From a virus (Duplodnaviria > Heunggongvirae > Uroviricota > Caudoviricetes), in the IMG/VR virus record IMGVR_UViG_2778261251_000001: a stretch of DNA of 29,693 nt; one strand, given 5' to 3'. Positions 1,969 to 4,597 of this stretch are shown here, piece by piece. Each line of letters begins with the position of its first letter. The first letter of the stretch is position 1. The translations under genes were made by a program, and so were the position numbers. The notes below the pieces were generated by a model. The model did no database searches, was not told the origin of the DNA, and saw only the letters and a program-made list of their open reading frames with translations.

Positions 1969-2241
1969 TCATCTCGCCGTCAGTTGTTTTGATTTCCGGT
2001 AGCCTGCCGCGTAAATAGCTACGTTTGGCAGGCAAATACTTCCACTGCATTCATCTGCCTTCTTGCAGCGAAGGCTTCCGAGTGATGCTGCTTTATCTGC
2101 TCTGACGCAACCAGAGAGCTTTAGCGCAATTTTTCGCGCCAGTCGCTGTTCTTGCATTGCCTGTTCACGTTGAGCCTGTCTGCGTGCTCTGCGGCGATTT
2201 CTGGCGTTATCGTCAGCCAGATATGTAATGACTACTGTCAT
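1969..2241 (-). CDS. N: antitermination protein N-like
   Basis: 90-aa ORF with arginine-rich motif (NARNRRRARRQAQREQ) near the N-terminus and a C-terminal VAIYAAGYRKSKQLTAR resembling P22 gp24; directly downstream of a boxA/boxB nut site on the same strand. Confidence 0.8.
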   Translation of the reverse strand: MTVVITYLADDNARNRRRARRQAQREQAMQEQRLARKIALKLSGCVRADKAASLGSLRCKKADECSGSICLPNVAIYAAGYRKSKQLTAR

Positions 2242-2348
2242 GTTGACCTCCGATGATTGACTTTGGCGGTGACGCGCCGGGTGCTTATCTTCCGGTTGCC
2301 GTCGTGCAGCTGCACTTCACATCACCCCAAAGCCAACTACTCTTTGGT

Positions 2349-2389
2349 TCCCGCATTTCGGCGGGACAATCCCATCAATGTTAAAGAGC
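2349..2389 (-). promoter_or_regulatory. nutL (boxA GCTCTTTAACA plus boxB hairpin CCCGC-CGAAAT-GCGGG)
   Basis: Read on minus strand: boxA-like GCTCTTTAACA (plus 2379-2389) followed by an inverted repeat (plus 2349-2366); the same boxB sequence recurs downstream of cro on the plus strand. Confidence 0.6.
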
Positions 2390-2436
2390 CTGCCAATCTG
2401 TTCCGTTTGGCTACCAGCGTCCTGCTGATGGCTAAA

Positions 2437-2522
2437 GAATACTGTAGGTATTTTATTGTGTAAATACCCAGGGTATTTATTTTTGATGAAATAATGATAA
2501 ACAGATGAATACAAAGGATATT
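2437..2522. promoter_or_regulatory. OL operator cluster / pL region: three AATAC-N5-GTATT-type sites
   Basis: Sites at 2438-2452 (AATACTGTAGGTATT), 2462-2478 (perfect 17-bp palindrome AAATACCCAGGGTATTT) and 2508-2522 (AATACAAAGGATATT, degenerate); located between the cI operon and N as expected for OL/pL. The pL -35/-10 hexamers were not assigned. Confidence 0.55.
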
Positions 2523-2608
2523 TATTTTTTCGGTATCTGCTTGTTCAGTGCTTTTTATGCGGGATATGTGAAGTGGATCCCGATAGCTATTGCTGCCGGG
2601 ATTATGGG

Positions 2609-2977
2609 TTAGTCAGCGAAGGTTAAGACGAGAATTACCTTAATGATGTCTGCTACAACAGACACGGCCACAGATAAACCAAAGACGATCCAAGCCATAG
2701 AGATGTCTTCACTACCATCGTATAGAGTTCCGTAATCACTGGTGTAAGGCGTAAATGTCGCGCCTTGATACAACAGGTATAAGCTTGATCCATAGAGGAT
2801 AAATGCAGATATCCCTTGTATTGCTATGACCACTAGAATCATGAAACGAGCTGATCTATGCGCCCAAGCCTGGCTTATTTTTTCTGATAGAGATTTCGCA
2901 ATAAAAGCATGCGCTAAGCCGTAAATTGTTGAGATTGCCAACATCCCAAAAAAGCTTGCTATAGCGGTTCCAACCAT
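2609..2977 (-). CDS. small integral membrane protein (3 predicted TM segments) co-transcribed downstream of cI; function unknown
   Basis: 122-aa ORF starting 19 nt after the cI stop with an AGGGGGA Shine-Dalgarno; three long hydrophobic stretches; occupies the rexA/rexB position of lambda. Confidence 0.6.
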   Translation of the reverse strand: MVGTAIASFFGMLAISTIYGLAHAFIAKSLSEKISQAWAHRSARFMILVVIAIQGISAFILYGSSLYLLYQGATFTPYTSDYGTLYDGSEDISMAWIVFGLSVAVSVVADIIKVILVLTFAD

Positions 2978-2996
2978 AAGCGTCCCCCTTGCGTGA

Positions 2997-3713
2997 TCAA
3001 ACCAGCCTTAGTTTTGTCTCAATTGCAACGCCTATAATCTTGCAGTTTCCATTGATTGGCACGAGAGGCCATGCAGGGTTAAGTCCCTTGAGGTATTTAT
3101 TTCCGCCGTCGATTATCAGCTTCTTGAATGTTGCTTCGTTAGAGTCAGAAAGTTTTGCTATGACCAAGCTGCCGTTGATCGCCTCCCTTCCGGTATCGAA
3201 AAGAACGAATGTTCCCTCTGGAATGCTTAACCCAACCGGTGCCGTCATTGAATCACCTTCCACTTTAAGCCAGAACGCATTACCTTGAATATGCGCGTCA
3301 GACTCAAGCCAAACATCTATGTCTTTAATGGTGTATGGTTCGCATGCTTCACACCACGAGCCAGCCTGGATACTGCTTAACACCGGATACCTCTTTCCTG
3401 CTCTGTATTCCCCTGCATACCTTACGTTGGCATCGCTCTTAAGGCTTTCTGCCTGTTCTGCAACCTTGGCAGCAATTGACTGGCTAAAATCAGCAATTGA
3501 GACTTGCAACAAACGTGCAAAACCAGATGCGACCTCAACGTTTAGCGCGTTTCTGCCATTAAGATAATGCCCTACCGCTCCTTGGGTGATACCCAGTTCA
3601 TCAGCGATTGAGTATTGGGTTATTCCCAATTCTTTCTTTTTTGACTCATACAAAGCCTTAAGCCGCTTAGCGTCTTCGAGCTGTTCTGTCGTCAGTGATT
3701 TTTTATTTTCCAT
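2997..3713 (-). CDS. cI: CI-type prophage repressor (HTH N-domain plus LexA/S24-like autocleavage C-domain)
   Basis: 238 aa; N-terminus KKSLTTEQLEDAKRLKALYESKKKELGITQ resembles lambda CI; an Ala-Gly in SIQAGSW, a GDSM serine motif and FKKL lysine motif fit the S24 self-cleaving fold; no Shine-Dalgarno upstream, so a leaderless pRM-type transcript is plausible. Confidence 0.9.
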   Translation of the reverse strand: MENKKSLTTEQLEDAKRLKALYESKKKELGITQYSIADELGITQGAVGHYLNGRNALNVEVASGFARLLQVSIADFSQSIAAKVAEQAESLKSDANVRYAGEYRAGKRYPVLSSIQAGSWCEACEPYTIKDIDVWLESDAHIQGNAFWLKVEGDSMTAPVGLSIPEGTFVLFDTGREAINGSLVIAKLSDSNEATFKKLIIDGGNKYLKGLNPAWPLVPINGNCKIIGVAIETKLRLV

Positions 3714-3747
3714 AGCTTAATTCTAATAGCTAAGGTACTTAAACTAA

Positions 3748-3790
3748 AAATACCCTGAGTATTGATTGCTTTGAATACCTGTAGTATTCT
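3748..3790. promoter_or_regulatory. OR operators with pR/pRM: two AATAC-N5-GTATT sites and a candidate pR (-35 TTGATT, -10 TATTCT)
   Basis: AATACCCTGAGTATT at 3749-3763 and AATACCTGTAGTATT at 3774-3788 in the divergent cI/cro intergenic region; candidate -35 at 3762-3767 and -10 at 3785-3790 with a 17-nt spacer. Confidence 0.55.
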
Positions 3791-3819
3791 TTGTTCATGG
3801 TTAATAACGGAGAGTGCAT

Positions 3820-4014
3820 ATGATTCGAATGACACTTGCCGATTACGCCAAAATCCATGGACAGGCTAAAGCAGCCAGTGACTTTGGTGTAATCCAGTGC
3901 GCTATCAGCAAGGCCATTCTGGCAGGCCGTAACATTATGGTTACGGTAAAGCCTGATGGCAGTGTGATTGGAGAGGAAGTTCGTCCTTTCCCAAGCAACA
4001 AGAAAAACAAATAG
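3820..4014 (+). CDS. cro: Cro repressor
   Basis: [39 protein letters not shown]...FPSNKK aligns by eye along its whole length with lambda Cro; GGAG 7 nt upstream of ATG 3820 (the track's 3814 start is a GTG). Confidence 0.85.
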
Positions 4015-4020
4015 TAACAC

Positions 4021-4065
4021 CGCTCTTTAACAGTCATGGTCCTCATTCCCGCCGAAATGCGGGAA
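4021..4065 (+). promoter_or_regulatory. nutR (boxA CGCTCTTTAACA plus boxB hairpin TTCCCGC-CGAAAT-GCGGGAA)
   Basis: boxA at 4021-4032 immediately after the cro stop; 7-bp-stem hairpin at 4046-4065 identical in core to the nutL boxB. Confidence 0.65.
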
Positions 4066-4122
4066 TACAACGCGCATAAGTTGATGCGCATAACTTCTTA
4101 TTAGTTAAGGAAATACTTACAT

Positions 4123-4401
4123 ATGCAACTTACAAGTACTCGCAAGAAAGCGAATGCAATTACAAGCAACATCCTGAATCGAATTGCTGTACGTGGTCAG
4201 CGAAAGGTTGCCGACGCGTTAGGGATTAATGAATCGCAAATTTCGCGATGGAAAGACAGCTTCATCCCCAAAATGGGAATGCTTCTTGCTGTTCTTGAAT
4301 GGGGTGTTGAAGACGAGGAGTTGGCGGAACTGGCTAAGAAAGTAGCCAGAATGCTGACAAAAGAAAAAGCCCCGAAGAACGGCGAATTCTTCGAGGCCTG
4401 A
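4123..4401 (+). CDS. cII: CII transcriptional activator
   Basis: ...ESQISRWKDSFIPKMGMLLAVLEWGV... matches the lambda CII helix-turn-helix and tetramerisation region; AAGGA Shine-Dalgarno upstream. Confidence 0.85.
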   Translation: MQLTSTRKKANAITSNILNRIAVRGQRKVADALGINESQISRWKDSFIPKMGMLLAVLEWGVEDEELAELAKKVARMLTKEKAPKNGEFFEA

Positions 4402-4435
4402 TGTAGAAAGACTGGATCAATCCACAGGAGTAATT

Positions 4436-4597
4436 ATGACAAAACGTCGTAAGAAATACCAGGAAAAAGAAGAGATTCGACACCCTGATTCACCTGAGGG
4501 ATTAGTGGTAGCCGCAGCAAATAACAGGGCGTTCGCAGAGCGCCTTGTTGGTGTTTACAGACTAGCCAAAGCAGGAGTGAAGCATGGGCGTCGTTAA
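4436..4597 (+). CDS. small basic ORF (53 aa) between cII and the replication initiator
   Basis: Hand-translated MTKRRKKYQEKEEIRHPDSPEGLVVAAANNRAFAERLVGVYRLAKAGVKHGRR*; AGGAG 5 nt upstream; end overlaps the start of the O-like gene. Confidence 0.4.
   Translation: MTKRRKKYQEKEEIRHPDSPEGLVVAAANNRAFAERLVGVYRLAKAGVKHGRR

Follow-up and report, generated by a model that had tools for sequence, protein, structure and literature searches.

We find that, on sequence evidence, the palindromic sites flanking cI in the window, by which we mean the whole stretch of 29,693 nucleotides analysed here, very probably serve as operators in a bistable switch that is built like that of lambda and has the immunity type of HK620. 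The carrier is a P22-like phage or prophage of E. coli. Correct as it is, the finding is an ordinary one, since the HK620 immunity type was annotated in GenBank in 2001, and it changes little, because a lambdoid switch of the textbook kind, already predicted, is identified once more. The finding would also correct the 25-year-old HK620 reference annotation with respect to OL3 and tIMM.

The sites are 17-bp pseudo-palindromes built around a central base pair, with the consensus (A/G)AATACY-N3-RGTATT(T/C). Exact matches to the core AATAC-N5-GTATT are found at 2438-2452 and 2463-2477 (at pL) and at 3749-3763 and 3774-3788 (between cI and cro), and nowhere else in the whole 29.7-kb window, where 0.01 would be expected. 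They are confined to the two control regions that flank cI, and the motif does not occur at similar density in coding DNA, which would have spoken against the sequence-only reading. Allowing one mismatch gives six matches (0.66 expected); the two extra ones are 2508-2522, the distal site on the pL side, and 1531-1545 inside sieB, the latter probably a chance match because 0.66 are expected at this threshold. A symmetric weight matrix derived from the four exact sites and scored over the 29,677 17-mers of the window ranks OL2 first, OR2 second, OL1 third, OR1 fourth, 2507-2523 fifth and OR3 (3724-3740) 11th. The proposal of five sites with the same half-site architecture is borne out in the form of the four exact sites and 2507-2523, which has one mismatch and matrix rank 5.

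Clustering of the motif as a chance feature of A/T-rich intergenic DNA has, in our view, next to no prospect of being the explanation. The intergenic regions are indeed A/T-rich and the excess at up to two mismatches is only 21 matches against 10.2 expected in the window, but 0 of 100 dinucleotide-preserving shuffles reach four exact matches and more than 100 independent contigs have the arrangement next to homologues of cI/cro, which already refutes this idea.

The operator reading is further supported by the neighbouring genes. The cI gene (2997-3713, minus strand) encodes a repressor of 238 aa with an HTH_3 N-terminal domain and a Peptidase_S24 C-terminal domain (Pfam), with the recognition helix TQGAVGHYLNG and with the lambda repressor (3bdn, E = 2.9e-52) as its best solved relative. 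In the alignment with lambda repressor, the Ala-Gly cleavage site (A111-G112), the catalytic Ser (S149) and the catalytic Lys (K192) of the latter are matched by IQAGSW, EGDSMTAP and FKKLI, respectively. The divergent cro gene (3820-4014, plus strand), separated from cI by an intergenic region of 106 bp, encodes a lambda-family Cro of 64 aa (PF09048, E = 3.6e-26) with the recognition helix QCAISKAI, which among solved proteins is closest to lambda Cro (E = 4.7e-19). A tripartite switch can accordingly be recognized, at the level of sequence, by divergent cI and cro, three OR sites, predicted promoter overlaps and the self-cleavage motifs.

The predicted rightward operators, pR and pRM

The OL/OR layout that had been proposed from the letters is upheld by the HK620 annotation, by the lambda-type cI and lambda-family Cro, by a half-site distinct from that of lambda and by the promoters, as sites lie over -10 and -35 hexamers of pL, pR and the predicted, lambda-like pRM. 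On the OR side, OR1 (GAATACCTGTAGTATTC, 3773-3789) and OR2 (AAATACCCTGAGTATTG, 3748-3764), which are OR1 and OR2 of HK620, both have the exact core. OR1 overlaps the -10 of pR, and OR2 overlaps the -35 of pR and abuts the -35 of pRM. The pR promoter (3762-3790, plus strand), to which the HK620 pR feature maps, consists of a -35 TTGATT (3762-3767), a 17-bp spacer and a -10 TATTCT (3785-3790); its hexamers match 8 of 12 consensus positions, slightly below the threshold of the promoter scan. On the minus strand, the sequence suggests a pRM (3720-3748) with a -10 TAGAAT (3720-3725), a 17-bp spacer and a weak -35 TTTAGT (3743-3748). The cI ATG begins at the seventh nucleotide past this -10, and a leaderless cI mRNA starting at 3713 is therefore predicted, as in lambda, where the context TAGATT-TAACGT-ATG has identical -10 to ATG geometry.

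The third rightward site, OR3 (TAATAGCTAAGGTACTT, 3724-3740), is degenerate, with two core mismatches, and corresponds to OR3 of HK620. By score alone some ten chance 17-mers of the window do at least as well, and its assignment therefore rests on position and on relatives, in which near-consensus OR3 sites such as TAATACCAGCACTATTC are its positional homologues. It overlaps the pRM -10 by 2 bp and lies 10 bp from the cI start codon, the same gap as in lambda. A third OR site had been suggested to be either degenerate or replaced by an 11-bp palindrome, TAAGGTACTTA, at 3730-3740; the first suggestion stands and the second does not, because this element is itself the centre and right half of OR3. 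Its actual coordinates are 3731-3741, and with TAAGTACCTTA as its reverse complement it is an interrupted repeat (TAAG-GTA-CTTA) and not a perfect palindrome. The centres of OR3, OR2 and OR1 at 3732, 3756 and 3781 give spacings of 24 and 25 bp, in keeping with the roughly 2.3 helical turns of a tripartite operator and compared with 23 and 24 bp in lambda, and the overlaps of operators with pR, pRM and pL are the same in both. Lambda likewise has 17-bp operators, symmetric about a central base pair, three on each side.

By analogy with lambda we infer CI and Cro binding, cooperativity, looping and pRM activation. With CI dimers on OR1/OR2 and OL1/OL2, pR and pL would be blocked, and CI at OR2, adjoining the weak -35 of the leaderless pRM, would activate that promoter. 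Through OR3, placed over the pRM -10, CI would repress its own synthesis, and Cro would bind there first. For a weaker third OL site at 2507-2523, the most likely role would be OL-OR looping over long range and not promoter occlusion. SOS induction would proceed via RecA-stimulated self-cleavage of CI.

Predicted leftward operators and the probable position of OL3

On the OL side, OL1 (GAATACTGTAGGTATTT, 2437-2453) and OL2 (AAATACCCAGGGTATTT, 2462-2478) both have the exact core, are OL1 and OL2 of HK620 (AF335538), and lie with their centres 25 bp apart. OL2 had been described as a perfect 17-bp palindrome, and it is one: all 8 of its 8 pairs are symmetric around the central base. The pL promoter (2436-2464, minus strand), called by the promoter scan and matching the HK620 pL feature, has a -35 TTTACA (2459-2464), a 17-bp spacer and a -10 TATTCT (2436-2441); OL1 overlaps this -10 hexamer and OL2 overlaps the -35 by 3 bp. 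Transcription is predicted to start at 2429, and over its first 13 nt the resulting RNA would be the same as that from lambda pL.

A probable third OL operator, GAATACAAAGGATATTT, is found at 2507-2523, with its centre 45 bp from OL2 (20 bp in lambda) and at -78 to -94 relative to the pL start. We assign it on the grounds of its conservation in diverged relatives. At the corresponding offset of 70 bp from OL1, two lineages (L010 and L037) have an exact consensus site, and L017, L014, L118, L060, L084, L092 and L100 have a site with one or two mismatches, while the sequence around it has diverged. Other lineages have a consensus third OL site at OL1+46 or OL1+55 and a separate GC-rich terminator farther on.

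In the HK620 record, OL3 is instead placed at 2484-2500 (TGATGAAATAATGATAA), and the 2507-2523 stretch is labelled tIMM, so that the palindrome would be only the hairpin of a terminator ending the cI-hkaS transcript. We consider this layout improbable. It is the published annotation, it gives a spacing of 22 bp from OL2 that is near the 20 bp of lambda, and an extended hairpin can be drawn on the minus strand at 2498-2541 (-6.7 kcal/mol, with a marginal z of -2.2), followed by a U-rich stretch. However, 2484-2500 bears no resemblance to the consensus (matrix score -29.6, rank 12,418 of 29,677) and its columns are unconserved among related lineages, so that it is not supported as an operator. 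We also rejected tIMM as a terminator, since folding of the 31-mer gives a minimum free energy of 0 and the terminator scan calls no terminator there. Relatives moreover keep the operator sequence at OL1+70 beyond what complementarity would demand, and the lineages with the third site at OL1+46 or +55 have their terminator elsewhere. We therefore favor 2507-2523 as the third OL operator; as it overlaps the marginal hairpin, it may have an RNA-level role as well. A further hairpin directly after the hkaS stop codon has no U-tract.

A more general form of the same doubt is that the palindromes might mainly be RNA or DNA hairpins or sites for host factors, and not CI/Cro operators, which we regard as very unlikely. 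Every site is self-complementary and could form a stem of 5-6 bp, and the region of the distal site upstream of pL is A/T-rich and conserved with lambda, but the stems, A/T-rich and 5 bp long, would have negligible stability. The half-site sequence is conserved across lineages beyond pairing, with pairing broken in the weak sites. The sites also sit on promoter hexamers exactly like lambda operators and co-occur with a cI of conserved recognition helix. No convincing IHF consensus was found by eye between OL2 and the distal site.

The slot between cI and OL, which in lambda holds rexAB, is here occupied by a gene for a membrane protein of 122 aa (2609-2977, minus strand; an ORF), 96-99% identical to HK620 hkaS and probably co-transcribed with cI. 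Among relatives the size of this slot varies widely.

HK620 and other immunity types

The window is 98% identical in DNA to HK620 over N-OL-hkaS-cI-OR-cro-cII, and in protein Cro is 100%, the cI N-terminal domain 99% and the cI C-terminal domain 100% identical. The HK620 record (AF335538) has OL1, OL2, OR1, OR2, OR3, pL and pR on the same bases as we do and disagrees with the present analysis in its OL3 and tIMM assignments. OL1, OR1, OR2 and OR3 are the same in sequence, and the OL2 spacer differs by one base, CCCAG in the window and CCCAA in HK620, which makes the 17-mer of the window fully symmetric. With a near-identical cI DNA-binding domain and Cro and operators at the same positions, the window is by its sequence of the HK620 immunity type. 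Outside the cassette it is a different mosaic, 46% covered by HK620 and 66% by HZ41.

For the coliphage HK620 immunity region, the source is Clark, Inwood, Cloutier and Dhillon (2001, J Mol Biol 311:657). Its operator annotation is itself a prediction, and our literature search for binding, footprinting or genetic evidence on HK620-type operators found none. The HK620 record is the only operator-level description we found for a cassette carried by about 146-219 of 5,426 complete E. coli genomes (roughly 3-4%) and also present in HK140, HK630, mEpX2, HZ41, HF4s and several Stx phages; the cI N-terminal domain and Cro of the window are 100% identical to those of mEpX2, HK140, HZ41 and others.

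The operators of 434 and P22 are 14-bp ACAA-N6-TTGT sites, or 18-bp sites symmetric between two base pairs, and go with an all-alpha Cro. The 2001 annotation of HK620 notes a similarity to 434 / P22 c2 type operators (AF335538). We rejected this type for the window, as its sites have a length of 17 bp and a central base pair, its Cro belongs to PF09048 and not to P22_Cro or a 434-like family, and the best solved relatives of cI and Cro are the lambda proteins. Lambda immunity was also rejected. The lambda half-site TATCAC and the AAATAC, or with its variant (A/G)AATAC, of the window differ at positions 1, 3 and 4, so that the earlier remark that the half-site (given there as ATAC) is unlike the lambda operators was right, and (A/G)AATACY stands where lambda has TATCACCGC. 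The recognition helices differ at five of nine positions in cI (TQGAVGHYLNG vs lambda GQSGVGALFNG) and three of nine in Cro (QCAISKAIL vs QSAINKAIH), and by tblastn the cI N-terminal domain is 53% and Cro 63% identical to lambda. A published "evolutionary code" for Cro proteins predicts half-site bases from the helix residues H1, H3 and H6 (PMC6649833). From Gln H1, Ala H3 and Lys H6 of the Cro studied here it predicts A at +2, A at +5 and C at +6, all three of which are present in (A/G)AATAC; lambda has these three residues and bases as well.

The putative operators of the Salmonella phage epsilon34, with the consensus WTACRAWWTGTAT (PMC2629481), have the core ATAC-N5-GTAT and occur in pairs at pL and pR, as in the window, and the recognition helix of its repressor (TKGAVSHWLNGR) is similar. 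The epsilon34 repressor is, however, only 33% identical overall to the cI of the window, its Cro has no similarity to our Cro (the sole match being the HTH region of cI), and only two sites per side are annotated, with the OR sites 59 bp apart. The 933W repressor, also considered, was not informative for the AATAC-N5-GTATT operator type.

A core half-site shared by diverged repressors

Our comparative set comprised 42 distinct related OR regions and 64 OL regions from IMG/VR, together with prophages of at least 12 Enterobacterales genera. In this set, variation is free in the 5-bp spacer and the flanks and spares the half-sites; since the set was retrieved by the motif itself, however, the invariance of half-site positions 2-6 follows in part from the way it was assembled. 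The cI recognition helix QG(A/G)VGHY(L/I/M)NGR is almost invariant, and a TANNNT hexamer occupies the pRM -10 position in all lineages of the compared OR regions. Three AATAC-N5-GTATT-type sites, unannotated, lie in the cI-cro interval with 24-25 bp spacing in Serratia phage vB_SspS_OS31 and Hafnia phage Pocitis76, and three such unannotated sites likewise in prophages of Pectobacterium, Tatumella, Pantoea, Enterobacter and others. These phages and prophages share the cI recognition helix of the window, with 61-84% identity in the N-terminal domain and 45-87% in Cro.

The motif had been thought to define the immunity specificity. This is right in so far as it is distinct from the lambda half-site, and goes too far as a unique definition: in Enterobacterales prophages the same core is flanked by cI 63-88% and Cro 45-87% identical to those of the window, and the core alone is therefore not unique to the HK620 immunity type. 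Look-alikes of AATAC-N5-GTATT are found beside remote cI genes in Pseudomonas and Pasteurellaceae. We tentatively suggest, as a possibility we would not yet bet on, that AATAC-N5-GTATT does not mark a single immunity type and is a recognition code common to a large clade of lambda-related cI/Cro pairs in Enterobacterales prophages (45-88% identical to the proteins of the window). Either these phages would form a broad cross-immunity network, or specificity would reside in operator position 1, in 24- versus 25-bp spacing or in cooperativity surfaces. The third OL site would then float between OL1+46, +55 and +70, lying in HK620-type phages over the lambda-conserved T-tract upstream of pL (2520-2530 in the window), where bound CI could complete the OL-OR loop and at the same time keep pL from being stimulated from upstream. 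Whether phages with the common core half-site and repressors about 65-85% identical are cross-immune is a testable question. They also offer a natural series of lambda-related repressor/Cro/operator sets, only three half-site positions away from lambda, that suits specificity-swap experiments like those behind the Cro recognition code.

One Cro lineage among these phages and prophages has the helix GVHQTAISKA, 24-bp spacing and T/C in place of G/A at operator position 1. We treat this difference between Cro-helix lineages as a lead only to a specificity determinant, because position 1 coincides with the -10 variants TATTCT/TATTAT formed by the outer operator half and because shared phylogeny keeps the sequences from being independent. 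As a same-host example of the motif we considered E. coli phage Fostie, with 68% identity in the cI N-terminal domain, and rejected it as a member of the motif family, as its control region has different, AGTACT-like repeats.

Predicted operators annotated in HK620 and recovered in the window

The window carries the lambdoid immunity gene order at 1969-4401, with sieB upstream: N (1969-2241, minus strand), a gene for a 122-aa membrane protein resembling HkaS of HK620 (2609-2977, minus), cI (2997-3713, minus), cro (3820-4014, plus) and cII (4123-4401, plus). Positions 1973-4445 are 98% identical to coliphage HK620 and 97–99% identical to HK140, HK630, mEpX2, HZ41, HF4s and several Stx-converting phages. 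The remaining DNA has a P22-like (Lederbergvirus) mosaic structure and is covered to 66% by HZ41 and to 46% by HK620. Of 5,426 complete E. coli genomes, 146–219 have the cassette in a prophage, and one copy is 100% identical.

The HK620 record (AF335538) annotates pL, OL1, OL2, OL3, the terminator tIMM, OR3, OR2, pR, OR1, nutL and nutR, and, compared with that record, window coordinates are shifted by +472 left of cI and by +474 from cI on. This places OL1 at 2437-2453, OL2 at 2462-2478, OR3 at 3724-3740 (TAATAGCTAAGGTACTT, with two mismatches in the core AATAC-N5-GTATT), OR2 at 3748-3764 and OR1 at 3773-3789. Thus, four of the five sites that the sequence-only reading had assigned to OL and OR were already annotated as operators, namely OL1, OL2, OR2 and OR1. 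The observation is real and its OL/OR interpretation is essentially right; the predicted operator set has been in the public reference annotation since 2001, and the switch copies the lambda architecture. What is added here to the known picture is small, a correction to the assignment of OL3 and tIMM and an estimate of how widespread the ATAC-operator clade is. We found no experimental binding data for these operators in the literature, and the functional statements made here therefore rest on homology and geometry.

The exact core occurs four times in the 29,693-base window (2438, 2463, 3749 and 3774), whereas 0.01 occurrences are expected from dinucleotide-preserving shuffles; the motif is not spread through coding regions at similar density. 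Allowing up to one mismatch adds two sites, 2508-2522, which is the third pL-side site of the earlier reading, and 1531-1545 inside sieB. As 0.66 cores with at most one mismatch are expected in the window, a single chance match is unsurprising, and the sieB copy (ATTACTGGATGTATT, one mismatch) fits chance. When all 17-mers of the window were ranked with a symmetric weight matrix derived from the four exact sites, these took ranks 1–4, 2507-2523 came 5th and 3724-3740 came 11th. As had been noticed, the sequence of 2462-2478 is a fully symmetric 17-mer.

For the third OR site, two options had been raised, a degenerate operator or replacement by an 11-bp palindrome. The former agrees with the annotated OR3 and its two core mismatches. 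The latter does not hold, as the quasi-palindrome is itself the centre and right half of OR3. Its correct position is 3731-3741, not 3730-3740, and the repeat is interrupted (TAAG-GTA-CTTA). In most relatives OR3 has one mismatch (e.g. TAATACCAGCACTATTC) and occupies the same position, which supports the degenerate OR3.

The probable third OL site and the annotated OL3 and tIMM

The OL3 of the HK620 record maps to 2484-2500 (TGATGAAATAATGATAA) and its tIMM to 2497-2527, a segment that contains the third pL-side site of the earlier reading (2507-2523). The annotated OL3 has a weight-matrix score of −29.6 (rank 12,418 of 29,677), and an alignment of 13 OL regions taken from diverged lineages shows no conservation of its columns. 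For the 31-nt tIMM the minimum free energy is 0, it takes an extended hairpin to reach −6.7 kcal/mol (z = −2.2), and no terminator was called at tIMM in a scan. Among relatives, on the other hand, an ATGAATAY-N5-GTATTTATTTT block is kept 70 bp from OL1, where the site matches the consensus exactly in two related OL loci (L010 and L037) and with 1–2 mismatches in seven other lineages. In still other lineages the third site, at OL1+46 or +55, fits the consensus, and a separate GC-rich terminator lies nearer cI. Rank, conservation and tIMM folding all favor 2507-2523 over the annotated OL3, and we consider it reasonably likely that this predicted site is the third OL operator. The HK620 annotation of OL3 and tIMM looks wrong: in this segment (window 2484-2527; HK620 sequence 2012-2055) OL3 is without operator consensus and tIMM is without a fold.

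The predicted third site occupies −78 to −94 relative to the pL start, and its position floats among lineages, which makes a role in looping and autoregulation likelier than promoter occlusion. Lambda OL3 takes part in OL–OR looping and pRM autoregulation, and by analogy the site at 2507-2523 would most likely be a partner in the same two processes.

A T-tract, ATTTATTTTTT, is found at 2520-2530, which is −91 to −101 relative to the predicted pL start; the identical 11-mer occurs in lambda (274-284 of L003, the lambda sequence), equally far from the pL start of that phage. Nearly all related lineages keep the tract at about OL1+85, whatever the position of their third OL site. The tract may be the counterpart of the distant UP element of lambda pL, which is attributed to Giladi et al. 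(1998) in PMC3708714.

Likeness to lambda and predicted operator recognition

In the HK620 annotation of 2001, cI was described as similar to the 434 and L repressors. Among solved structures, the closest to cI is lambda repressor (3bdn; E = 2.9e-52, full length) and the closest to the window Cro is lambda Cro (E = 4.7e-19), with identities of 53% for the cI N-terminal domain and 63% for Cro. The Ala-Gly cleavage site and the catalytic Ser and Lys of cI align with those of lambda, and cI is therefore expected to be SOS-inducible.

The control regions are isomorphic with those of lambda. In both, the operators are 17 bp long with a central base pair and OR3 ends 10 bp from the cI start codon, and the OR centers are spaced by 24 and 25 bp in the window compared with 23 and 24 in lambda. 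OR3 shares 2 bp with a −10-like hexamer, after which come six bases and the ATG (TAGAAT-TAAGCT-ATG, compared with TAGATT-TAACGT-ATG in lambda), and the pRM transcript is therefore predicted to be leaderless; TTTAGT, a weak −35, adjoins OR2. pR (TTGATT-17-TATTCT) overlaps OR2 and OR1, and pL (TTTACA-17-TATTCT in a promoter scan) overlaps OL2 and OL1. Despite the different operators, the predicted pL transcript, which starts at 2429, and that of lambda have their first 13 nt in common (AUCAGCAGGACGC, 2417-2429, minus strand).

The half-site had been described as unlike that of lambda, and this is borne out at positions 1, 3 and 4, whereas positions 2, 5 and 6 are common to both ((A/G)AATACY compared with TATCACC). 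The cI recognition helix keeps the initial Gln but has Gly in place of lambda Ser45. In lambda repressor Ser45 contacts base pair 4, which is among the differing positions. Cro residues H1–H6 read QCAISK, compared with QSAINK in lambda, and thus differ at H2 and H5. The pattern of shared and differing positions fits the Cro covariation rules, which pair Gln at H1 with A+2, Ala at H3 with A+5 and Lys at H6 with C+6 (PMC6649833).

Breadth of the operator family and variable spots of the cassette

A scan of IMG/VR for two core sites 8–12 bp apart returned at least 120 stretches. Among the matches listed, most pairs flank cI and cro homologues arranged as in the window, and only about one quarter are of HK620 type; the others have cI N-terminal domains 63–88% identical and Cro 46–87% identical, and 42 distinct OR and 64 distinct OL regions were obtained. 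With one genome taken per species, the arrangement was seen in prophages of Lonsdalea, Tatumella, Scandinavium, Pectobacterium, Providencia, Kluyvera, Photorhabdus, Pantoea, Phytobacter, Siccibacter, Lelliottia and Enterobacter, and two phages, Serratia phage OS31 and Hafnia phage Pocitis76, have it too. All these relatives show free variation in the 5-bp spacer and in the DNA between sites, while the cI recognition helix, QG(A/G)VGHY(L/I/M)NGR, hardly changes, as would be expected if the half-sites bind protein. As the loci were retrieved with the motif, the invariance of positions 2–6 is partly built in, and the informative parts of the comparison are the co-occurrence with cI and cro, the recurring three-site layout and the position of OR3.

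The motif had been proposed to define the immunity specificity. These are indeed the predicted sites of repressor immunity, and they are unlike those of lambda, but the core is common to many diverged cI/Cro pairs. Phage epsilon34 has putative ATAC-N5-GTAT operators, a repressor that is 33% identical with a similar recognition helix, and a Cro with no similarity to the window Cro. The HK620 type can therefore not be recognized from the core alone. Two Cro-helix lineages differ at operator position 1 (G/A compared with T/C/A) and in OR1–OR2 spacing (25 compared with 24 bp), differences that may be due to variants of the −10 hexamer and to common descent and not to protein specificity.

Paired cores also adjoin remote cI-like genes in Pseudomonas (L137, L169, L170 and L177) and Pasteurellaceae (L158, L160, L161 and L173), whose N-terminal domains are 35–49% identical; Pseudomonas phage repressors annotated as prtR-like are 42–47% identical to the cI N-terminal domain. 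On a 255-kb IMG/VR contig (L035, 1363-1602), about eight tandem copies of a repeat of about 29 bp (GTGTAAATACCTTCAGTATTCCACCTTCA) each contain the core. In the stretch of contig analysed around it there is no homologue of cI or cro; the array looks iteron-type and probably has nothing to do with the operators.

The hkaS-like gene (2609-2977, minus strand) fills the slot between cI and OL where lambda has rexAB, and probably shares a transcript with the repressor gene. Among relatives, between 117 and 2,654 bp separate OL1 from the cI stop codon, and the slot therefore resembles a site for variable cargo (a moron site). In HK140, the N start codon and OL1 are about 200 bp further apart (HK140 1841-2242 compared with window 2241-2438), and the extra DNA holds a small annotated ORF and a boxA, which makes the nutL leader another indel-prone spot in the cassette.
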